Shown: positions 46,211 through 61,917 of the stretch, in pieces
How the letters are laid out: each line of letters starts with the position of its first letter
How positions within the stretch are numbered: the first letter of the stretch is position 1
Source of the DNA: Candidatus Sericytochromatia bacterium
GTDB lineage: Bacteria > Cyanobacteriota > Sericytochromatia > S15B-MN24 > UBA4093
Direction: 5' to 3'
Assembly: GCA_036676985.1 (NCBI GenBank)
Contig: JAKFBU010000038.1
Location: 1-64,000, forward strand
DNA: 64,000 bases
The notes under the pieces: generated by a model
What the model was told of the DNA's origin: nothing
The model's input: only the letters and a program-made list of their open reading frames with translations
Databases searched by the model: none
Position numbers and translations under genes: made by a program

Positions 46211-47572
46211 CTAGCGCTGGATGGCCTTGCTGGCGTCGAGGATGCCGTGGCCGTAGTAGACGGGGTCCGCCCCCCCGGCGGTCGCGGCGAGCAGGATCTG
46301 CTCCATGAGGGCCGGCTTGAGGGGCCCGTGCGCCGAGCGAGCGAGCGCCGCCACGCCCGAGACGTAGGCCGTGGCCATGCTGGTGCCGCCGAGGAACATG
46401 TGGGGCGCGGGCCCCACCTTGAAGCCCTGGTCCTCGTGGGGCAGGGCCTGGTTGCTCCAGGTGCTGAGCACCAGGTCGGTCTTGTGCACCACGGGCGTGT
46501 AGGTCTCGGGATCGAGGCCCATGCCGCCGCCGGGCGCGGCCACGTCGAGGTAGCCCTGGCCGAAGTTCGAGTAGAAGGCGTAATTCGTGGGGTTCTGGCC
46601 GTTGAAGGGGCCGACGGCTCCGACCACGATGCCGGTTCCGGCTTCGGCGGGCAGCACGAAGTGGCCGTCGATGGGGATCTGCTGGCCGAAGTTGCCCGCG
46701 GCGATCACGACCACCGCCCCGCGCGACTGCGCATGGCGGATGGCCGCGGCGTAGGCCCCCTTGAGCCGCCCGCCCGTCGCGTTCTTCTCCCAGAGCCCCT
46801 CGAGGCTCAGGTTGATGACGGAGGCGCCCTGGCTCACGGCGTAGTCGATGCCGCGGATGATGCCGTAGTCGTTGCCCTGGCCGGTGGCGTCGAGCACCTT
46901 GATGGGCAGGATCGTGGCCTGCGGGGCCACGCCCGCGACGCCGTACCCGTTGCGGGCGGCGGCGATGATGCCCGCCACGTGGCTGCCGTGCCCGTTGCGA
47001 TCCACGAGGTCCGGCTCGTGCGGCACGAAGGAGCGCCCGTGGGCGAGATCCAGGTTGGGAGCGAGGTCCTGGTTGGTGGCGTCCACCCCCGAGTCGAGGA
47101 CGGCCACGACGGTGCCGCGGCCCTGGAAGCCCGCCTCCCAGGCGGAGCGGACCTTGCCGACGTCGAGGCCCCACTGGTAGCCGGAGAGGGGCTCGCCCTC
47201 GGGGCCGGGCTTGGCGGGGAGGTCGGCGTCGAGCGACGTGTCGCTGGCCGCGGAGGCCAGGATCGTCCGGCCGAGCATAGGGCGCGGGGCGGTCAGCGGG
47301 GCGCTGTCCACCCCGGGCGTCTCGGCCAGGCGCTGCATGAAGTTGGGGTCGGTGGTCTGGACCACCATGCCGCCCAGGCCGTCCAGGCTCTCCGTCACCT
47401 TGCCGCCGGCGGCGACGATGGCCGCGGCCACCTCCTCGGGGCTCCGCGCGGGATCGGGGAGCACCACGTAGCTCGTGGGGGTGGCGGGAGGCGCCCCCGG
47501 CACGCTGCAGGCGGCCAGGAGGGCGGCGATCGCCAGGGGGGGAAGTCGGCGTAGCCTCTGGAACGTGCCCAC
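46211..47572 (-). CDS. S8 serine peptidase (lipoprotein)
   Basis: DSG, HGSHVAG, GGTSMAT; lipobox LAAC. Confidence 0.92.
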   Translation of the reverse strand: MGTFQRLRRLPPLAIAALLAACSVPGAPPATPTSYVVLPDPARSPEEVAAAIVAAGGKVTESLDGLGGMVVQTTDPNFMQRLAETPGVDSAPLTAPRPMLGRTILASAASDTSLDADLPAKPGPEGEPLSGYQWGLDVGKVRSAWEAGFQGRGTVVAVLDSGVDATNQDLAPNLDLAHGRSFVPHEPDLVDRNGHGSHVAGIIAAARNGYGVAGVAPQATILPIKVLDATGQGNDYGIIRGIDYAVSQGASVINLSLEGLWEKNATGGRLKGAYAAAIRHAQSRGAVVVIAAGNFGQQIPIDGHFVLPAEAGTGIVVGAVGPFNGQNPTNYAFYSNFGQGYLDVAAPGGGMGLDPETYTPVVHKTDLVLSTWSNQALPHEDQGFKVGPAPHMFLGGTSMATAYVSGVAALARSAHGPLKPALMEQILLAATAGGADPVYYGHGILDASKAIQR

Positions 47573-47668
47573 GCGATCTCTCCTCAAAAAAACACTCGAG
47601 CGATGACCCACCGGGGTTATACATCGCTCGAGCGTAGAGTTAACGAGAGAAACGAGGGTTATTTGGGC

Positions 47669-49126
47669 CTATTCGGCGTGCACCGCGTTGTAGACGTTGA
47701 GGCGACCGTGGCCGTAGTTCGCGTCGAAGCCCTTGGCGCCGAGGTCGTCGGCCGTCTTGTAGAGGAGCTGCGCCAGCTGCTCGGGCTTCATCTTGCCCTT
47801 CTCCGCGAGGACCAGGGCGGCGGCACCCGCCACGTGCGGGGCGGCCATGCTGGTGCCCGCCAGGTACATGAAGGGGCTCGGGCCCACCGGGAAGACGCCG
47901 AAGAGCAGCTGATCCAGGGCGTGGGTGCTCCAGGTGCTCAGGACCATGTCCTCCATCGCGACCGGGAAGACGCCGAACTCGGGGTCGTAGGCCACGCCGC
48001 CGCCGGGGGCGGCCAGGTCCGTGATCTTGCGGCCGTGGTCACTGTAGAGCGCCGGCGCGTCGAAGTCCTGCTGGCCGACCGGGCCCGTGGCCGAGACGCC
48101 CACGTTCTGGCTGCCGGCGTCGACAGGCAGGTAGACGTTGCCGGAGGTGTCCGCGTTCTCGCCGTAGTTGCCGGTGGCCGACACGACGAAGGTGCCCTGC
48201 TTGGTGGCGTAGTCGATGGCCGCGCGGAAGCCCTTGCTCATGATCTTGGCTTCCTTGCTGCCGACCGGGAAGCGGTCCTCGAGGCTCATGTTGATGACGT
48301 CGGCGCCCGCGTCGGCGGCGTAGACGATGCCCGCCATGATGCCGAAGTTGTCGCCAAAGCCCGAGGCGTCGAGCACCTTGACGCTGATGAGGGTGGTCTT
48401 GGGGGCCACGCCCACCACGCCGAAGCCGTTCTGGTTGGCGCCGATGATGCCCGCCACGTGGCTGCCGTGGCCGTTGAGATCCAGGACGCCGACCGCGGCG
48501 TCGGGGCCGTAGTCGATGAAGGACTTGGACAGCTGCGGGTCGAAGTTCTCTGCGAACTCGGGGTTGTCGAAGTCGATGCCGGTGTCGAGCACGGCCACCT
48601 TGACGGCGGGGCTGCCCAGCTTATCCTCGGCCTCGGTCTTGTCCGCGCCGATCTGGTTCATGTTCCAGCTGAAGCTCATGGTCCGGGGCTCGCTGCCGGG
48701 GGGCATCAGCTCGGCGATCTTGGGATTGCCGGCCGCGACCGAGCCGCTCAGGCGGAAGGCCTCGAAGTCCTTCATGGCGCCGTCGACGCCCTTGATGGCC
48801 TGGGCCTTGGCGAGGAAGTCCGCGTCCGTCGAGGCGACGCCGATGATGCCGAGCTCGCTGGGCAGGTTGCCGACCAGCTCGCCGCCGGCGGCCACCAGGG
48901 CGCTGGTCACCTGGGCGGCGTCAGCGTCCGCCTGCAGGCTCACGAGATACTGCTGCTTGCCCTGGTGCAGGGCGTCTCGCCGAGCCGGGGCCGCCTGATC
49001 GAACGAAGCGCCGGCGATCTGGCCGACCGAGGGGCGGTTGACGTTGGAGGGAGCGGCGTTGCAACCCAGCAATAAGGATGTTGCCAGCAGCGTGGGGATA
49101 GCGAAGCGACGAATAGAAGCGCTCAT
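47669..49126 (-). CDS. S8 serine peptidase (lipoprotein), paralogue of the adjacent gene
   Basis: DTG, HGSHVAG, AGTSMAAPH; lipobox LLGC. Confidence 0.93.
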   Translation of the reverse strand: MSASIRRFAIPTLLATSLLLGCNAAPSNVNRPSVGQIAGASFDQAAPARRDALHQGKQQYLVSLQADADAAQVTSALVAAGGELVGNLPSELGIIGVASTDADFLAKAQAIKGVDGAMKDFEAFRLSGSVAAGNPKIAELMPPGSEPRTMSFSWNMNQIGADKTEAEDKLGSPAVKVAVLDTGIDFDNPEFAENFDPQLSKSFIDYGPDAAVGVLDLNGHGSHVAGIIGANQNGFGVVGVAPKTTLISVKVLDASGFGDNFGIMAGIVYAADAGADVINMSLEDRFPVGSKEAKIMSKGFRAAIDYATKQGTFVVSATGNYGENADTSGNVYLPVDAGSQNVGVSATGPVGQQDFDAPALYSDHGRKITDLAAPGGGVAYDPEFGVFPVAMEDMVLSTWSTHALDQLLFGVFPVGPSPFMYLAGTSMAAPHVAGAAALVLAEKGKMKPEQLAQLLYKTADDLGAKGFDANYGHGRLNVYNAVHAE

Positions 49127-49261: not shown

Positions 49262-50599
49262 CTAGAGGCCCAGGTGCTTGCCCCAGAACCGGAAGGCCAG
49301 GACGGCGAGCAACCCGACCGTGCCCAGGCCGAGCAGACCGTAGATGGTCAGGATGGCGGCCTCCCGGGGGGGGACGGACCCGGTGGGGCGACCGGTCAGT
49401 TTCTTCCCTATATAGGAAAAGGCCCTGGCCTGGAGGTTGGGGAGGGCGAGCAGATCCTCCGTCAGGTAGTAGCCGTCCAGGCGGGCGAACGGGATGAGGT
49501 TGAAGGCGCCGGCGGCCACGCTGATGATGGCGAGGTCCAGGGCCAGGGTCCGTCCTCCGGTCGTGAGGGGCAGCCAGGCCCAGGCCAGCATGCACAGGGC
49601 GGCCAGGCCGAACTGGTAGTAAAGGCCCGCCAGGCTCACGGCGACTCGGCCCCTGAGTGACAGGCGATGGGCTTCGCTGGTGTCGCAGAAGCCGAAGGGC
49701 ATGCCGATGAACAGCATGACGCCCATCTGGCGCACGGTGGCCCCGAGGGCGGTGGAGACGGCCGCATGGCCGAACTCATGCACGGCCAGGGAGAGGAAGA
49801 GGAGCGCGTAGATGCGCCCCAGGTGCAGGGAGTCGTACTGGTTGGAGAGCGCCTGCACCTCGGCCATGACCTCCGAGGCATGCAAGACGCCGAGTGCGGC
49901 GGCCGTGAGGGCGATGGGCAGCCAGACCGCCGAGAGGAAGCCGAGCGAGCTCGTGGGCTTCAGCACCGGCAGGCACGCATGCAGGAGGCGGCTCGGGTCC
50001 CAGAGGGGCAGCCGCCAGATGAGCCAGTCGAGGCCGGAACGACGGCGGCCGGTGGCGGTGGGAGCGTCCGGATCCTGCAGGAGGCCGGCGTCCCAGAGCC
50101 GCGCCCCGAGGTCCGCGACCTGACCCGGCGTGATCAGCAGCCCCTGGGAGTGCCAGACGGCGTTCAGGATCTCGGCGTAGGTCCGGGAGGTGGCGATCGC
50201 CTCGGCCACCGCGAACTCGGCGGCATCGAAGCGCATGTAGACGCCGAGCGGGGCGACACCCGCCACGATGAGCTCGCGCTGTCCCTCCATGACCGGGCTG
50301 GTGCGCAGGTCCGGGTGCCATGCGAGGCGCTCCAAGGACGACCAAACGGGGTGTGCGGCCAGGCGCTGTGCCTCGAGGGCCGCATCGATCTGGGGCTTGG
50401 TACAGACGCCCGCCCCTACGAGCAGCTCCCCGAGCCGGGTTGACTCCCGTTTTTGTCGTTCCAGGGCAAACGACACGTCGTCGGAAGAGCAATATCCCTG
50501 CCTGATCAGCAGCTCACCAAGCCGAAAGACGCCTGGTCGGAACTCCAGGAAGGCCTCTGCGAGAGGAGGAAGGGGCGAGCCGCCTGAAAGGGTCGTCAT
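49262..50599 (-). CDS. M50 (site-2) metalloprotease with tandem MshEN motifs and an RRE/PqqD-like domain
   Basis: HEFGH and NLIPFARLDG; N-terminal RLGELL..G...AL..Q twice; wHTH-like middle segment. Confidence 0.82.
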   Translation of the reverse strand: MTTLSGGSPLPPLAEAFLEFRPGVFRLGELLIRQGYCSSDDVSFALERQKRESTRLGELLVGAGVCTKPQIDAALEAQRLAAHPVWSSLERLAWHPDLRTSPVMEGQRELIVAGVAPLGVYMRFDAAEFAVAEAIATSRTYAEILNAVWHSQGLLITPGQVADLGARLWDAGLLQDPDAPTATGRRRSGLDWLIWRLPLWDPSRLLHACLPVLKPTSSLGFLSAVWLPIALTAAALGVLHASEVMAEVQALSNQYDSLHLGRIYALLFLSLAVHEFGHAAVSTALGATVRQMGVMLFIGMPFGFCDTSEAHRLSLRGRVAVSLAGLYYQFGLAALCMLAWAWLPLTTGGRTLALDLAIISVAAGAFNLIPFARLDGYYLTEDLLALPNLQARAFSYIGKKLTGRPTGSVPPREAAILTIYGLLGLGTVGLLAVLAFRFWGKHLGL

Positions 50600-50793
50600 A
50601 AGGCTATCTTACCCGATCCCGAGGAAGGGGTACCCGGACCCTCGAAAGTTTGCAGGAATGTTGCACGATCTTCAAAGGTCCGCTTATTTCGCTCAAGTCT
50701 TGATTAAACCTGAGGTCCAGCTGTTAAGAAGCCGTATGGACGGGTAGGAAGGAAGTAACGGATGGGGTTCACAGTAAAGAGGAGGATGTATCA

Positions 50794-51015
50794 ATGCTTT
50801 CGAACACCAAACTCATCAGCTTCGTCAACCGCGTGGCCTCCGACAACGATCTGCGCGCTTCGCTGGATGCCGACTTCGAAGGCACCCTGAAGGCCAACGG
50901 CCTCGAGCTCACCGGCAAGGAAATCGAGTCGCTGCGCGCCAGCTACGGTTACATCCGCGGCGTCAACCCGACCGCTCTCGAGCGTCGCATCGCGGCCGCC
51001 GGTGGTAGCTGCTAA
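50794..51015 (+). CDS. Putative RiPP precursor (NHLP/Nif11-clan-like leader)
   Basis: GAGGAGG RBS; FVNRVASDNDLRASL...GLELTGKEIESL leader pattern; directly upstream of a radical SAM gene. Confidence 0.78.
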   Translation: MLSNTKLISFVNRVASDNDLRASLDADFEGTLKANGLELTGKEIESLRASYGYIRGVNPTALERRIAAAGGSC

Positions 51016-51038
51016 ACAAGGGTAGGTGGTATCTGCAG

Positions 51039-51074
51039 GGCAGGGGGCGCTTGCCCCCTGCCATTTTCGTTTTT
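51039..51074 (+). terminator. Terminator/attenuator between precursor and radical SAM gene
   Basis: GGCAGGGGGC-gctt-GCCCCCTGCC followed by ATTTTCGTTTTT. Confidence 0.75.
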
Positions 51075-51086
51075 AAAGGATCGCTC

Positions 51087-52145
51087 ATGGCCGTGTCGTA
51101 CGATCGCGAGTTCTGCGTCCAGATCTCGGTGACCAACAACTGCAACCTTTCCTGCCGTCACTGCTACCGGGATGTGCGCAAGGCCTTCGACGACGAGTTC
51201 AGCACCGCCGAGCTGATCACGCTCCTGCACCAGGTCCGCGACCTGGCGGCCGACCTCGATCGCGAGCCCAACGTCGTCTTCAGCGGCGGCGAGCCCCTCT
51301 CCCGCCCGGATTTGGGACTGCTCGTCCGGGTGGCGCGCTCCCTGGGCATCGAGACGCACGTCAACACCAACGGCACGCTCGTCACCGAGGAGCTGGCCGC
51401 CGCCCTGCGCGAGTGGGGGATCCTCGCGGTGCAGGTGTCGCTGGACGGCCCGACCCCCGAGAGCCATGACCGGATCCGCGGACGCGGCAACTTCGAGCGC
51501 ACGCTCGTGGGCGTCCGCCACCTCCTGGCCGCAGGCATCGAGGTCATGTACAAGGTGACGCTCATGCCGGGCGTCAACACCGCGCTCATCCCCGAGTTCT
51601 ACTCGCTCGCCAACCGCGAGGGCGTGCACATCCTGTCCTTCGCGCGCCTGATCGCCATCGGTCCGGGCGCTCGCCTGCAACAGATGTCCATGCAGGAGTA
51701 CCGGGACACCCTGGAGGCGATCGCCCAGGAGGCCCACCGCTCGCCCTTCACCCGCACCGAGATCCGGGACGCGGGCTTCGACCGGGCCTTCTCCCTCGAC
51801 TTCGGGCAGAATTTCCAGAGCGAGGAAGGCCTCTCCTTCATGGCCATCGACGCCAACGGCACGGCCTATGCCGGCCGGCGCACGCCCATCCAGCTCGGCA
51901 ACTGGCGCGAGTCGTCGCTCGCCGACCTGTGGCGCCATCCGGTGCTCGAAGAGCTCAGGAGCCGCCGCATCACGGGCAAGTGCCAGGGCTGCGAGCTCTT
52001 TTCCGTCTGCGGCGGGGGCTCGCGAGCGGCCGCCTACGGCGCGACCGGGGACTACATGGCCCCCGATCCCCACTGCTGGTACGAGCCCGGGGTGGGCGAA
52101 CGAGTGACGGAGGTGGCTGCGGTCGCCCTCCCGGTGGTAAGCTAG
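51087..52145 (+). CDS. Radical SAM/SPASM-domain protein
   Basis: CNLSCRHC, SGGEP, VSLDG; C-terminal CQGCELFSVCGGGSRA...DPHC. Confidence 0.93.
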   Translation: MAVSYDREFCVQISVTNNCNLSCRHCYRDVRKAFDDEFSTAELITLLHQVRDLAADLDREPNVVFSGGEPLSRPDLGLLVRVARSLGIETHVNTNGTLVTEELAAALREWGILAVQVSLDGPTPESHDRIRGRGNFERTLVGVRHLLAAGIEVMYKVTLMPGVNTALIPEFYSLANREGVHILSFARLIAIGPGARLQQMSMQEYRDTLEAIAQEAHRSPFTRTEIRDAGFDRAFSLDFGQNFQSEEGLSFMAIDANGTAYAGRRTPIQLGNWRESSLADLWRHPVLEELRSRRITGKCQGCELFSVCGGGSRAAAYGATGDYMAPDPHCWYEPGVGERVTEVAAVALPVVS

Positions 52146-52149
52146 TGGC

Positions 52150-53280
52150 ATGCCACGCACGCTAGGAATCGATCTCGGCAACAGCAAGGTCAAGTACGTC
52201 GCCCTGGAGCTCACGGGGGACCGTCCGACCGCGCGCTATGCCACCTTCCCCCTGCCCTACACGCCCGAGCTGATGCCCGATCGCAGCACCGACTTCGAGG
52301 CGGGGCTCGTCACGACGTCGGCGGCCTTCCTCTCGGAGCTGGGCCTGTCCGCGGGCGCGTTCGACCAGGCGGTGGTCGCGACCAGCCACTTCTACAGCTA
52401 TCCCACCTTCAGCCAGGCGCTGCACCACACCGCGCGCCTCACGCAGGCGATCTGGGGCGATGCCGTCCGGCTCATCGGAGCGGACGGCAAGCTGTACTCC
52501 ACGAGCGCGGCCCTGGAGCGGACGGGGTCCGAGGTGGTGCGCTTCGCGGCCACCAAGTTCTGGGGCTCGGCGTACCTCGCGAGCAAGCTCATCCAGCGGG
52601 GCCTCTCGGTGGACGTGGGGACGACCTCGACGGATGCGATCGCCATCGTCGACGGAGTCATCGATCCGGCGTCCCAGCACGATCCCGACCGCTTCAACCT
52701 GGGCCGGCTGGAGAGCCAGCGACTCATGTGGTACGGCATGACGGCGACCCCGCTCGACTACGCGGCGCGCCGGGCCTCGGTGGGCGATCGCTCGTACTAC
52801 CTCTATCCGCGCATGGCGCAGACCGAGTGCGTGACGCGCATCCTGGACCTGGTCCCGGAGGAGCTCGCGCGCCGGCATGCCTACTTCGGGCGCTATCCCT
52901 CGCGGGAGGAGGCCCTGTTCGAGCTCGCCCAGGCCTTCGGTCTGGACCGGGAGCTGTTGAGCGACCGGGATCTGGTCGATCTGGCGGGCAACTTGCATCG
53001 CCAGCTGATCGCCCGGGTGGCCGAGGGCGTGGCCCGGGTCATGGCCCAGGCGGGCCTGGGGCATCCGGGGTCGATCCAGGCGGCCGTGATGGGCCTGGGC
53101 AAGGACGCGCTGGCGCGCCAGGCGTTGCTGGCCTGCGGGGTCAAGCACGACCGGATCGTGGACGTCGAGGACGTCATCGGGCCGGAGCTCGCGGCGGTGT
53201 CCACGGCCTACGGCGTGGCCCTCAAGGGCCTCGAGGAGGTCGCGGGGCGCTCCTTGGGCTTCGAGGCGGCTCGGACCTAG
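52150..53280 (+). CDS. Hydantoinase/oxoprolinase-family protein, MfnF-like
   Basis: GIDLGNSKVK, AATKFW, VDVGTTSTDAIAIVDG, RLESQRLMWYGMTATP align by eye with MfnF/Orf9-type motifs. Confidence 0.72.
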   Translation: MPRTLGIDLGNSKVKYVALELTGDRPTARYATFPLPYTPELMPDRSTDFEAGLVTTSAAFLSELGLSAGAFDQAVVATSHFYSYPTFSQALHHTARLTQAIWGDAVRLIGADGKLYSTSAALERTGSEVVRFAATKFWGSAYLASKLIQRGLSVDVGTTSTDAIAIVDGVIDPASQHDPDRFNLGRLESQRLMWYGMTATPLDYAARRASVGDRSYYLYPRMAQTECVTRILDLVPEELARRHAYFGRYPSREEALFELAQAFGLDRELLSDRDLVDLAGNLHRQLIARVAEGVARVMAQAGLGHPGSIQAAVMGLGKDALARQALLACGVKHDRIVDVEDVIGPELAAVSTAYGVALKGLEEVAGRSLGFEAART

Positions 53281-53415
53281 GGCGAACTCCCGCGAAACCA
53301 CGCCCGACTTGCCCTGCAGCGTTCGGGCGGAACACACATCCCTTCCTCACCTCGTGTCCCGGAGACCCAAAGCGACTATACTGCGGCCATCGTCCCAGGC
53401 AAGTCAGGCGGGAGG

Positions 53416-54054
53416 ATGTTCATGGCCAGGGTAGTGATCGTCGATGACCTCCAGGAGACCATCGATATCCTGGCCCCCCCCCTTGTCAGCCAGGGGCACG
53501 AGGTGTTGACGGACATCAGCCCGATTGACTTCGAGCGGGTCATGGCCTTCAAACCCGACGTGCTCACGCTCGACCTGTACCGTCGGCTCGAAGCGTTCGA
53601 CCGCCCGATTCAAAACATCGAGGCCGACGTGATCGGCTTCAAACCCCTCGTGGAGATGGAGCAGTACCCCGCCATCAGCGTCATTCCCATCATCCTGATT
53701 GGCAACTGCCTGCAGGAGAAGGACATTCCCACGTCCGTCAACTACGACTTGTTCCTCAGCCTTCCGGGGGATGTCAAGCTCTACTTCCCGAAGGTGGTCG
53801 AGATCGCCACCACGGTGAAGACGCGCCGCCAGATCAGCGACTACGTCTGTCCCCACTGCGGGAGCCGGCTGACGTTCACGGGGAAACGGAGAACGGACTT
53901 CTTTTGCCCCCGCTGCCACACCGCCGTCGCCCTCATCGACGACGAAAGCTGCATTGCACACACCAGTGACGGGCGCAAGCTTCCCTGCACCCTCGACATG
54001 TTGCGGCCACCCAAGGCGCTGCCCTTGAAATCCAGGAACAGACCGTCCGACTAG
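53416..54054 (+). CDS. Atypical receiver domain fused to a Zn-ribbon
   Basis: VIVDD, TLDL receiver-like core; CPHC...CPRC. Confidence 0.7.
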   Translation: MFMARVVIVDDLQETIDILAPPLVSQGHEVLTDISPIDFERVMAFKPDVLTLDLYRRLEAFDRPIQNIEADVIGFKPLVEMEQYPAISVIPIILIGNCLQEKDIPTSVNYDLFLSLPGDVKLYFPKVVEIATTVKTRRQISDYVCPHCGSRLTFTGKRRTDFFCPRCHTAVALIDDESCIAHTSDGRKLPCTLDMLRPPKALPLKSRNRPSD

Positions 54055-54106: not shown

Positions 54107-56524
54107 CTAGTTGGCCTTGAGCGTGACGAGCGTGATGTCGTCGAACTGGTCCGTCCCCTCCGAGAAGCGACGGATGGCCGACAGGATGGCCGTCTCCACC
54201 TCCTGGGCGGGCGACGTCACGTTGGCCGCCACGATCTCTGCCAGGCGCTCCTCGCCGAACTGTTCGCTGGTAGGGTTGAGGGCGTCCTCCGCCCCGTCGC
54301 TGTAGAAGACGATGAGCTCGCCTTCCTTCAGCGTCGCCCGGTTCTCCTCGTAGCCGATGGACGGGAACATGCCGAGCGAGACGCCCTTGGCCTCCAGCCG
54401 ACCCGTCGTGCCGGCCCGCGTCTCCATGGGCAGCGGGTTGCCGGCGTTTGAGAAGACGAGGCTGCGATCGCGCGAGTCGTAGACTGCGTAGAACGCCGTC
54501 ACGAACATCTTCTTGGACGGACGGTTGAGGTAGATGAGCTCGTTGGCCTTGGCCATCACGTCTGCCGAGGAGTAGTTGTCGCGGGCGATGGAGCGGAAGA
54601 TGACGAGGGTCATGGCCATCAGGAGGGCCGCCGGCACGCCCTTGCCCGACACGTCCCCGATGAGGATGCCCAGCCGGTGCTCGTCCACCGGGATGATGTC
54701 GTAGAAGTCGCCGCCCACCTCGAGCGCCGGGATCGAGGTGGCCGAGAACTCGACGCCGTCCAGGGCGGGGAGGCTCGTCCGCAGGAGGCCCGACTGGACC
54801 TCGTGGGCGATTTCCAGCTCGCGCTTGAGACGCTCCTGGCTCGCGAGCTGGCCGAACAGCTGGGCGTTCTTGACCCACAGGGCGAGCTGCTGGCAGAGGC
54901 TCACGAGCAGCGTGCGGTCCGTGAAGGTGTAGTTGAGGTCGCTCTTGCGCGGACCCACGAGCACGAGGCCGACCAGCTCGTCCTTGAGGCGCAGGGGCAA
55001 GGCGGTGGCCTGCAGCAGGCCGTCCACGTCCAGGGGCTCGGTGGTGACCGAGAGCTGCTGATCGGCGAGCAAGGTCCTGAGGGCAGGGTGCTCCGGGCTC
55101 AGCTCGATGCGCTGCCCGTACTCGAGTCCGAGGCTCTCGCGCTGCACGAGGTTGCCGGTGGCCTGGTCGCGCAAGAGGACCGCCACGTACTGGGGATAGA
55201 GCGCGAACTCGATGGTCTTGACGAAGAGGCGCAAGAGCTCGGTGGCGTCGAAGGTCTCGCGGGCCCGGTCGCCGAAGTCCGTCAGCAGCTGGGCGAGGTT
55301 GTAGCCGGTGCGGAAGAAGAGCTTGTCGACGAGGACCTTGGTGCGATCGCGCAAGGGAGCGAACGCTACGGCCACCGCGCCGGTCGCGACGATGTTGGTC
55401 CACTCGGAGCCCGTGCCGAACAGGCTGCGGATGCCCGCCGTCAGGATGAAGTAGGCCGACGTCAAGGCCGCCGTCACGATGGCGTAGGTGACGGTGCGCT
55501 TGACGATGACGTCGATGTCGAAGAGCTTGTGGCGGACGATGGTGTAGGCGACCGCCGCCGGGAAGATGACCATGCCGAAGAAGGTGTACTCGCCCCCCGG
55601 AAGGGTGGTGCCCATGGTCATCAGGCCGTTGACGATGATGACGGGCAGAAAGGCGATGAGGGCCCCCCACAGGATGAGGTTGGCCTGGCTCTTGACCTGA
55701 GGCGGGCTCGTGCGGCTGAAGCGGGCCCAGATGGAGGCGATGGGCACGATGAGGGTCGCGCCCGAGCCGATGAGCGTCAGGAACTCGAAGGCCACGGGCC
55801 ACATGTCCGGCCGGTAGAAGCTGAACAGGATGTAGCCCATGAACAGGAAGCCCGCGACGAGGTTGGCGGGCACGATCCAGGGGAACCGCTCGATGACGGG
55901 CATCTTGCGGGGCATGAGGAACGCCAGGTTGATGGCGAAGGCCCCCAGGAGCGCAAAGGCCTGGTTGTGCGGGAAGGTCGTGAAGACCTGGGTCGTGATG
56001 CCGTCGAAGTTGGTGACGAAGAACGTCCCGAAGAAGATGCAGAACAGGAGGTGCGCGCGGGCGACGGGATCGCCCGGCTTGACCAAGGAGACGAAGATGC
56101 CGATGAAGAAGTGGAAGAAGCCCACCACCCAGAACGCCAGGAAGAAGCCCACGTAGTCGAAGAGCGTGAAGCGCTGGGTCGGGATCGAGAGGTCCTGCTT
56201 CGCGAAGCCGTCGCCGGAGCGCCGCTCCACCGTGTAGCGCAACGGCGTGCCGGGGGGATGGGCCGCGACGATCCGGTAGACTTCCTGTCCGTCGGCCACC
56301 GGCGCGCCGTCGACGGCCACGACCCGGTCCTTCTGCTTGATCCCCGCCTGGATGCCCGTCCAGCGGGACGACGCCAGGGAGTCGACGGTGTTGTTGCGCA
56401 GGACGACGAAGCCGGGGAAGGGGCGATTGATCCAGGTGAAGGAGAGCAACAGACACGCTATCGAAATTATCACGAGCGAGCCCATGGTCGCCCAGAATAA
56501 GGCCTTGGTTAGCTTCTGCTGCAT
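54107..56524 (-). CDS. PDZ-multi-TM-GAF-PP2C (SpoIIE/RsbU-family) phosphatase
   Basis: AGIKQKDRVVAVDG PDZ; several TMs; VGGDFYD, DVSGKG, YSDG, DDIT. Confidence 0.9.
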   Translation of the reverse strand: MQQKLTKALFWATMGSLVIISIACLLLSFTWINRPFPGFVVLRNNTVDSLASSRWTGIQAGIKQKDRVVAVDGAPVADGQEVYRIVAAHPPGTPLRYTVERRSGDGFAKQDLSIPTQRFTLFDYVGFFLAFWVVGFFHFFIGIFVSLVKPGDPVARAHLLFCIFFGTFFVTNFDGITTQVFTTFPHNQAFALLGAFAINLAFLMPRKMPVIERFPWIVPANLVAGFLFMGYILFSFYRPDMWPVAFEFLTLIGSGATLIVPIASIWARFSRTSPPQVKSQANLILWGALIAFLPVIIVNGLMTMGTTLPGGEYTFFGMVIFPAAVAYTIVRHKLFDIDVIVKRTVTYAIVTAALTSAYFILTAGIRSLFGTGSEWTNIVATGAVAVAFAPLRDRTKVLVDKLFFRTGYNLAQLLTDFGDRARETFDATELLRLFVKTIEFALYPQYVAVLLRDQATGNLVQRESLGLEYGQRIELSPEHPALRTLLADQQLSVTTEPLDVDGLLQATALPLRLKDELVGLVLVGPRKSDLNYTFTDRTLLVSLCQQLALWVKNAQLFGQLASQERLKRELEIAHEVQSGLLRTSLPALDGVEFSATSIPALEVGGDFYDIIPVDEHRLGILIGDVSGKGVPAALLMAMTLVIFRSIARDNYSSADVMAKANELIYLNRPSKKMFVTAFYAVYDSRDRSLVFSNAGNPLPMETRAGTTGRLEAKGVSLGMFPSIGYEENRATLKEGELIVFYSDGAEDALNPTSEQFGEERLAEIVAANVTSPAQEVETAILSAIRRFSEGTDQFDDITLVTLKAN

Positions 56525-56652
56525 CTGATCGCTTTCTATCCCAGTATTTATAGGCCTTATACCATGGGAGATTGGAAAGTTATCGTGACAAAAACACGGC
56601 TTGCGTGAGGATGCGCGGTAGTTCAGGCCCCCTTCGCGGGTATGATCTCCCC

Positions 56653-57723
56653 ATGGCCAGCACCGCGATCGACTCCCGCCTCGTCTCTAGCCTCCTGGGC
56701 TTTCTCATGGCCCAGGCGGCCGACGACTTCTCCGAGGCCGTCGAGCTGCAGGGAGCCGTTCCGGGCTATCCCCTCTTGATCGGAGCGACGTTCCCGCTGT
56801 CGCTCATCGCCTCGGCCCTCGACCGGGCGGCGCCCTCCGACCCGGAGGTGCAGGCCGTCGTGGCCCGTCTCGTGGAGGCGCTGGTCGGCTTCGGCGACGA
56901 GGACGGCTGGCGCTACTTCACGATCTGTCCGGACATCCCGCCCGATGCCGACGACCTGGCGCAGGTAGTCGCCATCCTGGCCGAGCGCCGCCACCCCCAG
57001 GCGGCCATGCTGCTGGCAGGCCCGTTGCGCCGCCTCGCGCGCAACGCGCAGGGGACGGGGCGCTACCGGACCTGGCTCGTGGACACGCCGGAAGAGGCGG
57101 CGCAGGCGGACTTCACCTGGGCGGCCGGCCGGGATCCCGTGCATCCCGAGGTGGTGGCGAACGTCCTGTACGCGCTGTGGCGCCTCGATCGCGAGGCCTG
57201 GCGGGACGACATTCTCGCGGGCGCCCGCTGGCTCTTGACCCGGCAACAGGCGGGACTCTGGGCCAGCTACTGGTACTACGGCCACGGCTACGGGACGCAT
57301 CTGGTCCTGCGGCTCTTGGCGGCGGTCGCCGAGACCTGGCCGGGCGAGGTCGCGGGCCTCCCAGACGCGCAGGCCGCGGCCCGGGAGTCGCTACTCGCGG
57401 CCCAGGAGGCGCTGGGCGGCTGGAAGGTGGCGCAAGCGCCCCTGGGCCTCTTGGAGCTCGGTGAAGCTTGGGAGTCCGGCCCGGAGCGGGCGCTCGAAAC
57501 AGCCCTTTGCCTGTCGGCCCTGACATATTTGCCGGTGGATGACACCGTACGCATGGCCCAGGAACGGGCCATTGCCTATCTCGCCTCGATCCAGGAGCCG
57601 GACGGAGGCTTCGCGGCCGAACCGTACTACTTTACGATGGGTCGTATTCCGCACCAGAGCAGGTGTTTGACCGCTGCTGCCGTTTTGTCGGCCGCGGCGT
57701 TCGTGGGTCATGGGGGCAGTTAG
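56653..57723 (+). CDS. Prenyltransferase/squalene-cyclase-fold (class II terpene cyclase-like) protein
   Basis: PPDADDLA (DxDD), QW-like motifs QQAGLW, QEALGGW, QEPDGGF. Confidence 0.7.
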   Translation: MASTAIDSRLVSSLLGFLMAQAADDFSEAVELQGAVPGYPLLIGATFPLSLIASALDRAAPSDPEVQAVVARLVEALVGFGDEDGWRYFTICPDIPPDADDLAQVVAILAERRHPQAAMLLAGPLRRLARNAQGTGRYRTWLVDTPEEAAQADFTWAAGRDPVHPEVVANVLYALWRLDREAWRDDILAGARWLLTRQQAGLWASYWYYGHGYGTHLVLRLLAAVAETWPGEVAGLPDAQAAARESLLAAQEALGGWKVAQAPLGLLELGEAWESGPERALETALCLSALTYLPVDDTVRMAQERAIAYLASIQEPDGGFAAEPYYFTMGRIPHQSRCLTAAAVLSAAAFVGHGGS

Positions 57724-57794: not shown

Positions 57795-58190
57795 ATGACA
57801 GCAGCAACCCAATCGTACCAACCGGGAGAGGGATCTTCGTTGGAGACATTCAAGCAAAGCATCGAAACAGCTGGTGATATCACCTTCCTGAAGCCCGAGG
57901 GGTTCATCGACGCCCACACGGCTCCCGAGCTCGAGAAGGTGCTCAATGACCTGCTGGCCCAACACCGCTACAAGGTGGTGCTGGATTGCCAGAACATGGA
58001 GTACATCTCGAGCGCGGGTCTCGGCGTCCTCATGGGGGCCATCAGCACCTTCCGTCAGAACAAGGGCGACATGAAGCTCGTCCAGCTCCCGCCCAAGGTG
58101 TTCAAGGTCTTCGACCTGCTCGGCTTCACCAAGCTGTTCGAGATCTTCGATTCGCGCGGCGAGGCGATCGCCGCTTTCCAGGAGAGCTAA
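57795..58190 (+). CDS. Anti-sigma factor antagonist (STAS, RsbV-like)
   Basis: GFIDAHTAP, YISSAGLGVL, FDLLGF. Confidence 0.9.
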   Translation: MTAATQSYQPGEGSSLETFKQSIETAGDITFLKPEGFIDAHTAPELEKVLNDLLAQHRYKVVLDCQNMEYISSAGLGVLMGAISTFRQNKGDMKLVQLPPKVFKVFDLLGFTKLFEIFDSRGEAIAAFQES

Positions 58191-58195
58191 CGTCC

Positions 58196-58630
58196 ATGGG
58201 CGAGTCCAGCCAGTTCGAGGCCACCTTCCGCAACGACACGGCGAATCTCTACGAGATTCGCACCTTCGTGCGCGAAAAGGCGCTTGCGATGGGATTCCCC
58301 GAGGAGTCCATCGACAACATCGAGCTGGCCGTGGACGAGGCGTGCGCCAACATCATGGAGCACGCCTATCCGCCCGGCGTCTTGGAGCCGGGGCTCCACC
58401 TGATCATCCAGTACGAGGACGACAAGTTCACGGTGATCATCTCCGATCGCGGGGAGACCTTCGATCCGGGCAAGATCAAGCCGCCGGTGATGAAGGAGTA
58501 CATCTCCGAGTACCGGGTGGGCGGCCTCGGCATCTACCTCATGCGCACCCTGATGGACCAGGTGGATTACCACATCCAGCCGGGCATCAAGAACGAGGTC
58601 CGCATGGTCAAGTTCCTGCCTGCCGTCTAG
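58196..58630 (+). CDS. Anti-sigma factor kinase (RsbW-like)
   Basis: LAVDEACANIMEHAY, DRG, GGLGIYLM. Confidence 0.9.
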   Translation: MGESSQFEATFRNDTANLYEIRTFVREKALAMGFPEESIDNIELAVDEACANIMEHAYPPGVLEPGLHLIIQYEDDKFTVIISDRGETFDPGKIKPPVMKEYISEYRVGGLGIYLMRTLMDQVDYHIQPGIKNEVRMVKFLPAV

Positions 58631-58632
58631 CA

Positions 58633-59412
58633 GTGCTCCTCACCAGCCTTCAAAACCCCAAGCTCAAGTCGCTCCGCTCGCTGCACGCCCGCAAGGGTCG
58701 AAAGCAGGCGGGCCTTTTCATGTTGGAGACCACCAAGCTGGTCCAGGAGGCGATCGCCTCTGGCTGGCCCCTGGAAGAGGTCTTCGCCACCGAGGAGTGG
58801 GTCGCCAAGTACGGAGCCCCCGCTGATGCCCCCGTGACCCTCGTGGCCGAGCGGCTGTTCACCCAGATCGTCACGACGGAGACGCCCGAGGGGGTCGTGG
58901 CCGTGGCACGGCTGCCGCAGGAGCCGGAGCTGCCGAAGGTGACGGCGACGTCGTTCTTCGTGGTGGCGGACGCCCTGCAGGACCCGGGCAACCTCGGGAC
59001 CATCATCCGCACGGCGGATGCGGTGGGCGCGACGGCCGTGCTCGTGGGGCCCGGGACGGTGGATCCCTACTCCCCGAAGGTCGTGCGCGCGACCATGGGC
59101 TCGCTCTTCCACCTGCCGGTGCTCGTGCGTTCGTCCCTCTACGACGATCTGAAGCAGCTCAAGGGACAGGGCGTCGCGGTCTTCGCCACGGCCCTGCGTC
59201 ACGACCGTTCGCTGTACGACCTGGACCTGTCGGGCCCCTTGGCGTGGCTCGTCGGGAACGAGGGGGCGGGGCTCACGCCGGAGGCCCTGGCGCTCGCCAC
59301 CGAGGCCGTCTCCATCCCCATGCCGGGGCAGGCGGAGTCCCTCAACGCCTCGGTCGCGACGGCCGTGTGCCTGTACGAGACCCTGCGGCAGCGCGTGGCT
59401 AGGGGCCGCTGA
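58633..59412 (+). CDS. TrmH/SpoU-family RNA methyltransferase
   Basis: QDPGNLGTIIRTA, GNEGAG, ESLNAS. Confidence 0.92.
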   Translation: MLLTSLQNPKLKSLRSLHARKGRKQAGLFMLETTKLVQEAIASGWPLEEVFATEEWVAKYGAPADAPVTLVAERLFTQIVTTETPEGVVAVARLPQEPELPKVTATSFFVVADALQDPGNLGTIIRTADAVGATAVLVGPGTVDPYSPKVVRATMGSLFHLPVLVRSSLYDDLKQLKGQGVAVFATALRHDRSLYDLDLSGPLAWLVGNEGAGLTPEALALATEAVSIPMPGQAESLNASVATAVCLYETLRQRVARGR

Positions 59413-60031
59413 ACGGCGCGCGCTTTCTCAACTGACGAACGTACCAGATGATGGCCCAGCGGTCCTCCGTGCTCAGGCGCTTGCGGAAGCTCGGCATGGT
59501 GGAGAAGCCGTTGGTGATCCGCTCGAACATCAGACCATCGGACATGCCGCGAACGTGCGTGTCTGTGAGGTCGCGAGGGCGGGGGGCGTAGACCTCGCCG
59601 ACCGGTCCGTCGCCCTTGCCGCCCTGGCCGTGGCAGAAGGAGCAGTAGTCGCGGTACCGCACGGCGCCGACCGCGAGCACGGCGGCGGTGCGGGGCAAGG
59701 GGTTGGACGCGGTGGCGCCACCCGGCGGCAGGGCGGCCATGGACCAGGGGCGGGGCGGGGTCAAGGGGATCGAGCCGCTCGCGGGGAGGAGCGGGTCCTC
59801 TTGGGAATGGATGGACGGCTGATCGGCCATCTGGCCGGAGCAGCCCATGAGTAAGACCGTCAGCGCGAGGGTGACCCAGATACCACCCCCCCAACCCCCC
59901 CTGCTTCGCAAGGGGGGCTTTTGTTGGGGCGGGGCGGTGGATGGCGTTCCAATCTCCCGGCGCAGCCGGGCAGTCCTTGTGCCCCCCTTGCTTGCAGGGG
60001 GGGAAGGGGGGGTGGCTCTCGTCAGTCCCAT
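59399..60031 (-). CDS. actE: Monoheme cytochrome c lipoprotein (ActE-like) with a repeat-derived N-terminal insertion
   Basis: CSFCH, lipobox LMGC, MP distal ligand, DRWAIIWYVR; last gene of the act cluster. Confidence 0.8.
   Translation of the reverse strand: MGLTRATPPSPPASKGGTRTARLRREIGTPSTAPPQQKPPLRSRGGWGGGIWVTLALTVLLMGCSGQMADQPSIHSQEDPLLPASGSIPLTPPRPWSMAALPPGGATASNPLPRTAAVLAVGAVRYRDYCSFCHGQGGKGDGPVGEVYAPRPRDLTDTHVRGMSDGLMFERITNGFSTMPSFRKRLSTEDRWAIIWYVRQLRKRAPFSGP
59883..60015. repeat. Imperfect inverted REP-like doublet
   Basis: CCACCCCCCCAACCCCCCCTGCTTCGCAAGGGGGGC ... GCCCCCCTTGCTTGCAGGGGGGGAAGGGGGGGTGG. Confidence 0.75.
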
Positions 60032-60522
60032 CGCCGCACCTCCAACGCCCCCGCCATCGCGGCCTCCGCCGCTTCCACCCGCTCAGCGGGCGCCGTCACC
60101 GTCACCCCGATCTTCCCGGCGGCGATCCGGTCGTCGTACGGCACCTTGCCCCGCGACTGCCGGCCGATGTGATACAGCGCCAGGAAGAAGGCGGTCCAGA
60201 TGGCCCCCAACATCGTCATCTCGTACATGATGACCCCCGACGTCGGCATGGACACGATGGCCTTGCCGCCTGTCGGCAGCGGGTAGAGCCACGCCGTCCC
60301 GGCCGCCAGCAGGAAGCCCGCGAGCGTCCCCACCGCCCCCATGACCACCGACGCGCGGACCTGGTCGTGGGTCCGGGTGTGGGGCAACCCCAGGGCGTCC
60401 GGTGGCAGGGGAATCGACGACAGCACGGCGATCTCGCGCGCCGCGAAGCGCGCCGCCTTGAGGGCATCGACGGCGCGCACCGCCGCGTCGAGGTCGCCAA
60501 AGAGCCCCAGCACGCTAGCCAT
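60022..60522 (-). CDS. actD: Alternative complex III subunit D (DUF3341)
   Basis: YPLPTGGK..., YEMTML, two TMs; follows the NrfD gene. Confidence 0.8.
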   Translation of the reverse strand: MASVLGLFGDLDAAVRAVDALKAARFAAREIAVLSSIPLPPDALGLPHTRTHDQVRASVVMGAVGTLAGFLLAAGTAWLYPLPTGGKAIVSMPTSGVIMYEMTMLGAIWTAFFLALYHIGRQSRGKVPYDDRIAAGKIGVTVTAPAERVEAAEAAMAGALEVRRWD

Positions 60523-61915: not shown

Positions 61916-61917
61916 GG

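Follow-up and report, generated by a model that had tools for sequence, protein, structure and literature searches.

An MfnF-like ASKHA-fold protein encoded beside a cysteine-ended peptide in a Sericytochromatia bacterium

In a 64,000-nucleotide stretch of DNA from a Candidatus Sericytochromatia bacterium (hereafter, the window), we identified an enzyme gene that encodes a protein of the ASKHA fold, which is not an MfnF but a member of a family sister to MfnF/Orf9. In the window and in 22 other loci, distributed over three clades, a small ORF with an NHLP-like N-terminus and a Cys end lies upstream of this gene on the same strand (23 of 23 loci). This pairing is seen in two gene architectures that are unrelated to each other, the names of the relatives covering at least three phyla, and it points to an undescribed peptide modification, not to cofactor synthesis. 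We put at roughly 55% the probability that the enzyme matures the small ribosomal peptide in this clade by modifying its terminal Cys, the residue on which, judging from the comparison of loci, it most likely acts.

Table 1. Features of the peptide locus and its surroundings, in window positions
Feature	Position	Strand	Basis and remarks
Second S8 protease	46211..47611	-	Conserved neighbour; membership uncertain
Subtilisin-type S8 protease	47669..49126	-	Conserved neighbour by tblastn synteny; membership uncertain
Membrane HExxH (M50-like) protease with N-terminal MshEN-type c-di-GMP motif	49262..50599	-	Divergent; Pfam Peptidase_M50 33.5 bits
NHLP/Os1348-clan peptide, 73 aa, ending ...RRIAAAGGSC	50794..51015	+	Upstream of enzyme; ATG after AGGAGG
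GC-rich hairpin followed by T-run, terminator- or attenuator-like	51039..51062	+	Directly 3' of peptide gene
Radical SAM/SPASM protein	51087..52145	+	Pfam Radical_SAM 101.6 bits, SPASM 26.5 bits
MfnF-like ASKHA-fold protein, 376 aa	52150..53280	+	ATG start; domain, family and structure matches
Class II terpene-cyclase-like protein, DxDD motif	56572-57723		Conserved neighbour

The peptide gene and its partners

The 23 loci comprise 18 of a Sericytochromatia type and 5 of a second architecture (type B), the relatives in the latter bearing Planctomycetota and Labilithrix names. Across them, the tail of the peptide varies in length and sequence before the Cys, and the C-terminal Cys is the only invariant tail residue, providing the conserved putative modification site in the core that is looked for in RiPPs. 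In an alignment of 19 peptide sequences, only L24 and the terminal Cys were invariant. Thus, among Tyr, Ser and Cys, which a sequence-only reading of this DNA had named as candidate targets, the comparison singles out Cys. The locus scan was performed with a narrower alignment (A3), the 30-sequence alignment A2 being too diverse.

The peptide of the window scored 29.3 bits on NF038399, below the cut-off of 40, and the type-B peptides scored 47-57 bits, over it. A profile of 19 relatives of the peptide matched the Os1348 structure (PDB 6lk7) with an E of 5.7e-8 and an NHLP chimera (8tb1) with an E of 5.9e-5. By this profile and by the type-B peptides, the gene encodes a small precursor whose N-terminal domain is of a recognised leader type, a second feature looked for in RiPPs. 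One RNA-library contig (229 nt, spanning 50793-51018) matched the peptide ORF with 0 differences, which is weak evidence of expression, since carry-over of DNA is possible; within 50700-53300, library run X20 covered only the peptide ORF and is uninformative on the enzyme gene, and run X15 is probably DNA. The hairpin behind the peptide gene has 10 pairs, 9 of them G-C, and is weak evidence on its own because the scan found 2 sites in total against a mean of 1.8 in shuffled sequence.

The radical SAM ORF opens at TTG 51051, and its relatives align from residue 1 of the form that begins at ATG 51087, the likelier start of the gene judging from this alignment. Its best NCBIfam matches were TIGR04053, AhbD, NirJ and an MftC-like model, all below the cut-offs, with an E of 1.1e-36 on the MftC model. 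The M50-like protease scored 158.6 bits on daptide_HExxH, under the cut-off of 300, and 50.9 bits on NF053729, over the cut-off of 38, and had tblastn matches in 10 other loci. Homologues of the subtilisin-type protease in locus L007 were called as Peptidase_S8. The surroundings of the enzyme are RiPP-like, its neighbours being a peptide of the NHLP clan, the radical SAM/SPASM protein and an HExxH protease, which supports the sequence-only reading in this respect.

These partners are not constant. The radical SAM gene is found in 15 of the 18 Sericytochromatia-type loci, being missing in L007, L046 and L047, and is also missing in all five type-B loci, where a PF05014-like gene and a gene for a soluble HExxH protein occur instead; 8 of the 23 loci thus have the enzyme but no radical SAM gene (INDEPENDENCE from that gene). 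L046 and L047 are two-gene loci in which the radical SAM and M50 genes have been lost and the pairing with the Cys-ended peptide has been kept, and in L047 the peptide and enzyme genes overlap. In the window, the enzyme and peptide genes belong to one operon, and the gap between the radical SAM stop and the enzyme start is 4 nt. PF05014 had no match in the genome from which the window derives, so that the type-B accessory step is not used in the window system. One type-B locus is adjoined by a gene for an HFCD-type flavoprotein.

Fold and family of the enzyme

The enzyme ORF was confirmed to be a real gene encoding an ASKHA-fold protein. Both ASKHA motifs that had been claimed for it are present in the translation (residues 6-15, GIDLGNSKVK; residues 154-162, VDVGTTSTD), and Pfam Hydantoinase_A (PF01968) matched residues 139-358 with 29.1 bits, over the gathering cut-off of 22.9. 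The only NCBIfam matches were TIGR03123 (E 1.8e-23; 83.3 bits, under the cut-off of 244.1) and the MfnF model NF040623 (E 3.6e-13; 49.4 bits, under the cut-off of 520), and a protein atlas search returned generic Hydantoinase_A clusters only. The AF2 model (mean pLDDT 93.8) has an ASKHA fold nearest to 3c0b/3cet. Its best PDB match was the MfnF-family chain 3cet_B (Foldseek E 5e-21), with a VIA Z of 32.5 and an rmsd of 2.9 Å over 321 aligned residues at 20% identity, followed by acetone carboxylase (beta) with a Z of 23.4, acetophenone carboxylase with 17.0 and N-methylhydantoinase with 16.5; sugar kinases had a Z of about 15. The A1 profile matched 3c0b with an E of 2.9e-16.

In a 62-row tree, which was obtained by a quick search and is unrooted with no outgroup, the 16 proteins over the TIGR03123 cut-off formed one clade (SH-aLRT 99), and the window protein fell outside it, within another set of 37 rows (SH-aLRT 95). 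The scores separate the two groups likewise: all 20 representatives with at least 177 bits on the A1 profile had at most 82 bits on TIGR03123 (cut-off 244), and the 16 genuine TIGR03123 members had at most 109 bits on the A1 profile. Because the genome holds no hydantoinase A paralogue to serve as an outgroup, the comparison with hydantoinases was made by structure, where they come after the MfnF-family protein. The relation to MfnF that the sequence-only reading had claimed, and for which it had called for a phylogeny, therefore holds in the sense that MfnF/Orf9, and not an ordinary hydantoinase, is the nearest known relative by A1 profile, structure and tree.

In the phosphate-binding core, D155, G157 and G196 (numbered as in the window protein) do not vary in any of the three groups under comparison; T200, D266 and G315 show no variation in the peptide-linked set and are conserved at 0.94 or above in MfnF; and D8, G10, K15, T161 and G317 are conserved at 0.75 or above. 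In contrast, eleven positions with a conservation of 0.94 or above among the 16 MfnF rows carry other residues in the 24-row peptide-linked set, namely E79, D82, E191, Y194, R199, E221, D227, D246, R258, R261 and C264, with E221 being replaced by an invariant Arg. These polar residues would line the substrate pocket of MfnF; as they are replaced, that pocket is not kept, and the analogy is limited to the diphosphate/phosphate site. In the alignment with 3c0b, the first phosphate loop reads GNxKVK in the enzyme and GGANTK in MfnF, and the enzyme carries additional segments (residues 39-42, 122-125 and 179-183).

MfnF/Orf9 (TIGR03123, NF040623; structures 3c0b and 3cet, M. maripaludis Q6M145) thus shares with the window protein the two-domain ASKHA fold, the phosphate-binding motifs and D266, and it, too, stands alone as a protein of about 350 aa. 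The window protein differs in its sister clade, in scoring below both family cut-offs and in the replaced pocket residues; furthermore, the partners of MfnF are a furan diphosphate and gamma-glutamyltyramine, whereas that of the window enzyme would be a ribosomal peptide. The likeness to hydantoinase A, oxoprolinase and the acetone carboxylase beta subunit is that of a domain-level Pfam match and of the second-best structures, the 376-aa protein being about half the length of acetone carboxylase chains (roughly 700 aa) and aligning to only part of them. True hydantoinase A subunits are similar in size to those chains.

Judging from four of its genes, a methanofuran/H4MPT pathway is missing from the genome. 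MfnB (PF04476), Mch (PF02289), MfnE (NF040622) and FTR (PF01913) had no match anywhere in its 4.68 Mb, which markers indicate to be 100% complete, in searches that gave positive controls in methanogens, and the enzyme gene was the sole match to TIGR03123 or PF01968. The enzyme accordingly does not co-occur with these methanofuran and H4MPT pathway genes; a complete pathway that needs it would have told against the sequence-only reading. HyuB, the B subunit (PF02538), also had no match in the genome, and the combination of a partner B subunit with a long A subunit, as in a hydantoinase/oxoprolinase holoenzyme, was not found. Among the scanned neighbours and 42 further ORFs of the window that were searched with Pfam, no mfn or C1-transfer genes were found near the enzyme, in agreement with what had been read from the sequence. 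C1 genes occur in the window only at 23.8-28.2 kb, where the T and P proteins of folate-type glycine cleavage are encoded.

Proposed reaction and alternative explanations

In the mechanism that we propose, the peptide would have two parts, an N-terminal domain of the NHLP/Os1348 type, which is folded, and a flexible tail rich in Gly and Ala, which varies in length and carries the final Cys, and the inter-domain cleft of the enzyme would take in this tail, the terminal Cys being modified there. The chemistry may be either alkylation of the thiol by a diphosphate-activated donor or ATP-dependent activation, which are equally compatible with the fold. Our first choice, a tentative one that draws on the analogy with MfnF, is a reaction of the MfnF type (nucleophile + R-CH2-O-PP -> R-CH2-Nu + PPi), in which the Cys thiolate would displace the diphosphate of an activated donor to give an S-alkylated (prenyl-type or similar) C-terminal Cys. 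Against this, none of the genes in the operon would produce a special diphosphate donor. In most Sericytochromatia-type loci, the AhbD/NirJ/MftC-like radical SAM/SPASM enzyme would add a second step, possibly oxidative chemistry at the C-terminal residue, and the HExxH protease, which is here membrane-bound with a c-di-GMP-binding motif, possibly together with the S8 proteases, could release a short C-terminal product.

The strongest alternative, itself rather unlikely, is that the enzyme matures the Cys-ended peptide by ATP-dependent chemistry, phosphorylating the C-terminal carboxylate, the thiol or an amide oxygen in the manner of acetate kinase or of hydantoinase A/acetone carboxylase, so as to activate it for a later step such as cyclisation, ligation or decarboxylation. 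Both phosphate motifs and a GxG adenosine-type motif are conserved, the folds next after 3cet are those of the ATP-dependent acetone and acetophenone carboxylases and of N-methylhydantoinase, and Pfam assigns the protein to Hydantoinase_A. Moreover, a carboxylate would be well matched by the invariant Arg221 and by Arg45 and Arg186, which are invariant or nearly so, and such chemistry needs no donor-making gene, which is consistent with the two-gene loci. However, the first phosphate loop of kinases is DxGGT, and that of the enzyme departs from it in having no Gly-Gly-Thr, and the HyuB partner is absent from the genome. Wang et al. in 2015 reportedly described MfnF as a transferase that displaces diphosphate and as no kinase. 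MfnF is also the closest structure by a wide margin in Z, and it appears as a diphosphate-displacing transferase in passages of a published article (PMC8141765).

It is improbable, to a greater degree, that the protein is a housekeeping or small-molecule enzyme, acting for example on a free thiol or a gamma-glutamyl compound, and that its adjacency to the peptide is inherited synteny with no functional coupling. Eight loci in other subclades of the 37-row family have no Cys-ended peptide, two of them lying between gamma-glutamyltranspeptidase (GGT) and Ser/Thr kinase genes and two behind dnaG-rpoD, with a GT2 gene and CcsA/HisRS as further contexts, so that the family as a whole is not dedicated to peptides. 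The small Cys-ended ORFs at 4281-4436 of L043, which lies within the GGT gene, and at 9353-9538 of L051 were considered fortuitous. A homologue of the enzyme occurs in 33 of the 47 genomes of the class, with two copies in 11 genomes of one family (f7). Our own proposal is weakened by the same eight loci, by the synteny being in part inherited, since all the Sericytochromatia-type loci belong to one class, and by the three peptide-linked clades, which were not joined as one group in the 62-row tree. Against the housekeeping explanation, the pairing recurs in the quite different type-B gene set, with relatives named from other phyla, it outlasts the loss of the radical SAM and M50 genes, and the genes are closely spaced in the window and overlapping in L047.

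We give still less credence to a non-catalytic role, in which the protein would be an RRE-like scaffold that binds the peptide and positions its tail for the radical SAM enzyme or the protease. Counted from TTG 51051, the CxxxCxxC motif of the radical SAM protein occupies residues 31-38, too close to the N-terminus for an RRE domain to precede it, and the loss of many MfnF pocket residues is also in keeping with such a role. In contrast, the invariance of D155, G157, G196, T200, D266 and G315 in the peptide-linked set is as for a working active site, and the enzyme persists in the eight loci that have no radical SAM partner. Finally, a true MfnF/Orf9 serving a methanofuran-like cofactor, or an ordinary hydantoinase/oxoprolinase A subunit, which the exclusive NCBIfam matches and the Pfam score over cut-off might suggest, is very improbable, being contradicted by the family scores, the separate clade, the partial alignment to carboxylase chains and the partner genes unmatched in a genome that is complete by markers.

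Relation to known peptide systems and implications

Modification of the terminal Cys by the MfnF-like enzyme would have parallels in pathways that focus on the last residue of a peptide. In mycofactocin (MftA/MftC), 3-thiaglutamate (TglA-Cys/TglHI) and LanD-type Cys decarboxylation, a small peptide carries a conserved leader and is modified at its final residue, as is proposed for the window peptide. To our knowledge, an ASKHA or MfnF-like enzyme has no part in any of these pathways. The cluster OS3 of Pseudomonas sp. Os17 (Os1348), with NHLP/Nif11-type precursors, shares with the window system an N-terminal peptide domain homologous by 6lk7 and NF038399 and, according to its published description, an HExxH peptidase beside the peptide; the genes given there are those for a GNAT, the HExxH peptidase and a SagB-type dehydrogenase, with no MfnF-like or radical SAM gene, and the word 'cysteine' does not occur in that main text (PMC7726476).

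RiPPs are assigned to classes according to their tailoring enzymes, and our literature search found no ASKHA, MfnF-type or hydantoinase-type enzyme in that role, nor a description of an MfnF-like enzyme paired with a Cys-ended peptide. Among the listed papers on MfnF, titles and abstract openings yielded nothing on peptides, and no literature on Franean1_4349 was found. A bolder proposal, which we regard as doubtful and which extends the methanofuran analogy, is that MfnF-like ASKHA proteins define a new class of ribosomal peptide products, in which the C-terminal Cys thiol would be alkylated by a diphosphate-activated allylic or prenyl-type donor through the diphosphate displacement used in methanofuran synthesis. 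The neighbouring DxDD class II terpene-cyclase-like protein could then cyclise the lipid, and the outcome would correspond, in bacteria, to C-terminal Cys prenylation, with release under c-di-GMP control.

If the enzyme indeed matures the peptide at its terminal Cys, this would assign a function to an uncharacterised sister family of MfnF and would reveal either cysteine chemistry of a new kind or a new small molecule built on a peptide scaffold. It would also provide the first defined natural-product pathway for the non-photosynthetic relatives of cyanobacteria, a group without a cultured model.

Relationship to MfnF and the hydantoinases

Both ASKHA-type motifs named in the sequence-only reading were found in the translation of the MfnF-like gene, with GIDLGNSKVK at residues 6–15 and VDVGTTSTD at residues 154–162. 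Pfam Hydantoinase_A covered residues 139–358 with 29.1 bits (cut-off, 22.9), and the only two NCBIfam matches were TIGR03123 at 83.3 bits (cut-off, 244.1) and the MfnF model NF040623 at 49.4 bits (cut-off, 520). Because these NCBIfam scores are below the cut-offs, the protein is judged to be a remote relative of MfnF, outside the MfnF family proper. With 27 homologues as input, AF2 gave a confident model (mean pLDDT, 93.8; pTM, 0.91), whose top PDB match was Methanococcus maripaludis Q6M145 (3cet/3c0b), with a Foldseek E of 5e-21 and TM of 0.72/0.81, and VIA-align gave a Z of 32.5 and an rmsd of 2.9 Å over 321 aligned residues at 20% identity. The Q6M145 chain was also first among the sequence-profile matches (E 2.9e-16). 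The next folds by VIA-align were acetone carboxylase beta (Z 23.4), acetophenone carboxylase and FtsA (both Z 17.0) and N-methylhydantoinase (Z 16.5), with sugar kinases behind at Z of about 15.

A word-indexed search returned only 29 relatives (28 at 49–90% identity and one at 28%), and searching 1.84 billion representatives with a profile gave 1044 matches at E ≤1e-3, 33 of these at E ≤1e-30. When 51 representatives were scanned against NCBIfam, the 20 best by the profile of this protein's relatives (177–349 bits) scored no higher than 82 bits on TIGR03123, and four of them had no match at E ≤1e-8; the 16 that passed TIGR03123 reached at most 109 bits on the former profile. In a tree of 62 rows, drawn with midpoint rooting after a quick IQ-TREE search with SH-aLRT as the only support measure, these 16 formed one clade (SH-aLRT 99), and the window protein fell in a separate 37-row set (SH-aLRT 95), the subclades of which are mutually unresolved.

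The host assembly comprises 79 contigs totalling 4.68 Mb, with a marker completeness of 100% and a contamination of 5%. TIGR03123 and PF01968 matched this genome once each, both at the MfnF-like gene, and there was no match to MfnB (PF04476), MfnE (NF040622), Mch (PF02289), FTR (PF01913) or Hydantoinase_B (PF02538), the five partner models searched; control genomes were positive for every one of these models. The earlier remark that no mfn or C1-transfer genes lie nearby also held, as none of 42 further window ORFs scanned with Pfam matched an H4MPT or methanofuran gene, and the sole C1 genes were those of the glycine-cleavage T and P proteins, 24–28 kb away. Thus, from the tree and the genome searches, the protein neither groups with ordinary hydantoinases nor is required by a methanofuran pathway, either of which would have spoken against a repurposed enzyme. 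The MfnF homologue Orf9 of Methylorubrum is presumed to join F1-PP to a Glu-Tyr/tyramine dipeptide (PMC8141765).

Pairing with a Cys-terminated peptide

The MfnF-like gene forms an operon with an upstream radical SAM/SPASM gene and a small peptide ORF (see table). The window peptide resembles NHLP-clan leaders, with 29.3 bits on NF038399 (cut-off, 40) and 18 bits on the Nif11 leader. One contig of 229 nt from an RNA library of soil matched 50793–51018 with 0 differences, covering the peptide ORF alone, DNA carry-over being possible. DNA near-identical to 50700–53300 occurs in soil and groundwater metagenome runs from several studies, with at least half of the sampled words in five runs of two studies; two of these runs may be the source.

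Features around the MfnF-like gene
Feature	Position	Strand	Remarks
Two S8 proteases			Beyond HExxH gene, same side; family called on homologues
Membrane HExxH protein, 445 aa	49262–50599	−	Divergent; Peptidase_M50 33.5 bits
73-aa peptide ORF	50794–51015	+	Upstream of MfnF-like gene; AGGAGG motif before ATG; product ends ...ALERRIAAAGGSC
GC-rich hairpin, ten pairs, with T-run	51039–51062		After peptide gene; scan total no higher than in shuffles
Radical SAM/SPASM gene	Probable start ATG 51087	+	Stop 4 nt before MfnF-like ATG
MfnF-like gene	52150–53280	+	ATG start; 376 aa
212-aa protein	53416–54054	+	Weak zinc-ribbon matches; between MfnF-like and SpoIIE genes
SpoIIE-type membrane PP2C phosphatase	54107–56524	−	PDZ and GAF matches
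Class II terpene cyclase-like stand-alone protein, ~357 aa	56572–57723	+	SQHop_cyclase_C 31.6 bits
STAS protein	57795–58190	+	Partner-switching set
HATPase_c_2 anti-sigma kinase	about 58190–58630	+	By homology with L007 (related locus)
Cytochrome c-like ORF	59399–60031		CxxCH motif as basis
Alternative complex III genes	60022–64000	−	ActD, NrfD-like ActC, molybdopterin-type subunit; ordinary respiratory content; window end

Related loci were collected from a genome scan (4 loci, all from records titled Ca. Sericytochromatia except one TPA assembly titled Stenomitos), a metagenome scan (11 loci), 47 species genomes of the class and 17 fetched regions. A homologue at E ≤1e-20 was present in 33 of the 47 species genomes and in 17 of the 23 high-quality genomes. 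All 18 loci of the Sericytochromatia type (the window, L002–L005, L007–L012, L044–L048, L052 and L054, L053 being on the same contig as L004) carried an upstream same-strand ORF of 70–81 aa that was homologous to the window peptide and ended in Cys, with flexible tails variable in both length and sequence (..AAAGGSC, ..AAGGTSC, ..AAAGHSTC, ..GGATPAC, ..DGDGGDHC, ..ADDC, ..GGGEC, ..GWGIGC, ..GGSIGC and ..RGPREGC). The five type-B loci (L013–L017) encode MfnF-like enzymes just 29–35% identical to the window protein within a different gene set, in the order PF05014 (nucleoside deoxyribosyltransferase-like), a 74–80-aa peptide, the MfnF-like gene and a soluble CHExxHHLR-motif protein, the last being seen in L013–L016, as L017 stops inside the MfnF-like gene. 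Their peptides end in ..DPxKRRAAC and exceed the NF038399 cut-off (47–57 bits), and close homologues of this enzyme clade are named Planctomycetota and Labilithrix. Enzyme and Cys-ended peptide were therefore paired in 23 of 23 loci of three clades, which do not appear as one group in the tree. Leu24 and the terminal Cys were the sole invariant positions in a 19-peptide alignment, the profile of which matched the Os1348 crystal structure 6lk7 (E 5.7e-8) and the NHLP leader chimera 8tb1 (E 5.9e-5). The radical SAM gene was present in 15 of the 18 Sericytochromatia-type loci (missing in L007, L046 and L047) and missing in all five type-B loci; an M50-like protease was found by tblastn in 10 loci besides the window and was missing in the visible f4 and g3 loci.

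Eight loci from other subclades within the 37-row family had no Cys-ended peptide by tblastn or by ORF search on the strand of the enzyme, and hence the family as a whole is not dedicated to peptides. Neighbors were annotated in six of the eight, L039 and L041 being left out: a GT2 glycosyltransferase (L042), CcsA-like and HisRS genes (L040), and rpoD, presumably preceded by dnaG, with an uncharacterized 346-aa protein (L050 and L051). L038 and L043 come from species genomes of the class that also includes the window; there, members of a paralogous MfnF-like subclade lie between gamma-glutamyltranspeptidase and Ser/Thr protein kinase genes. Because the substrate of MfnF itself is a gamma-glutamyl compound, a gamma-glutamyl or Cys-Gly metabolite is a possible substrate for this subclade.

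Downstream, the partner-switching set (SpoIIE-type phosphatase, STAS protein and anti-sigma kinase) adjoins the peptide cluster in an arrangement kept across the class. Most f1-type loci keep the cyclase-like gene in synteny with the cluster, separated from it by the SpoIIE gene; L048 lacks it. An eight-homologue profile of its product matched squalene-hopene cyclase (E 8e-25) and the single-domain cyclases 8pak, 8paj and MstE, and the DxDD motif (IPPDADD) was present in seven of the eight; the protein could possibly provide a lipid or prenyl step or be part of the partner-switching module. By tblastn, none of the related loci, not even the 89%-identical L002, had a counterpart of the 212-aa protein, which looks like an insertion specific to the window genome.

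No link of an MfnF-like, hydantoinase-like or ASKHA enzyme to ribosomal peptides was found in the openly accessible literature. Among described systems with such a peptide, cluster OS3 of Pseudomonas sp. Os17 comes nearest; it encodes a GNAT, a SagB-type protein and an HExxH peptidase and, unlike the window cluster, is described without an MfnF-like gene (PMC7726476). Frankia_peptide, Nif11 and ComX leaders are placed in one LigA-like group in another report (PMC12353581).

Active site and proposed mechanism

Conservation was compared among 24 peptide-clade rows (chosen by clade, with the context seen for only part of them), 10 rows from the other subclades and 16 rows of MfnF. Each of the three groups had D155, G157 and G196 without exception; T200, D266 and G315 were likewise fixed in the peptide-clade set and at least 0.94 in MfnF; and D8, G10, K15, T161 and G317 were at least 0.75. 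The shared residues correspond to the phosphate-binding core plus D266. Eleven positions at least 0.94 in MfnF (E79, D82, E191, Y194, R199, E221, D227, D246, R258, R261 and C264) are replaced in the peptide clades, among others by S79, W194 and an invariant R221, and the present family has R45, D48, G52, Y84 and P85 of its own and additional segments at residues 39–42, 122–125 and 179–183. We read this pattern as a retained phosphate/diphosphate site with a rebuilt substrate pocket, where R45, R186 and the reversed charge at 221 would fit a terminal carboxylate.

We infer that the enzyme acts on the terminal Cys of the peptide. The earlier proposal that a diphosphate-activated group is attached to a peptide Tyr, Ser or Cys thus gains a RiPP-type context and, from the 23 loci, Cys as the target, its chemistry being still a proposal. 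By analogy with MfnF, the Cys thiolate would displace diphosphate in an S-alkylation, to which we assign a probability of about 0.3. Only slightly less probable is an ATP-dependent chemistry like that of the related hydantoinases and acetone carboxylases, which would activate the C-terminal carboxylate or the thiol.

The radical SAM enzyme would carry out a second step in most Sericytochromatia. Its best models, all below cut-off, were TIGR04053, AhbD, NirJ2, NirJ1, an ACGX-system enzyme, a GeoRSP-system enzyme and MftC; AhbD and NirJ are propionate side-chain decarboxylases and MftC is a C-terminal Tyr decarboxylase. An HFCD-type flavoprotein of 212 aa adjoins one type-B cluster (L016:4607–5242, −), with 49 bits on coaBC and 28.7 bits on the peptide-Cys decarboxylase CypD, both below cut-off, and this gene, at that one locus, hints at decarboxylation of the C-terminal Cys.

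Proteases may then free a short C-terminal product, many tails having GG followed by 2–5 residues and the type-B tails KRR followed by AAC. The HExxH protein of the window scored 158.6 of 300 bits on daptide_HExxH and 50.9 bits on an MshEN-type c-di-GMP motif (cut-off, 38). A second-messenger module is fused to the HExxH protein in both architectures, as this MshEN motif in the window and L007 and as a cNMP-binding domain in the CHExxHHLR protein of L016 (1971–4385, +). These fusions to messenger-binding modules suggest that release of the peptide is gated by a signal.
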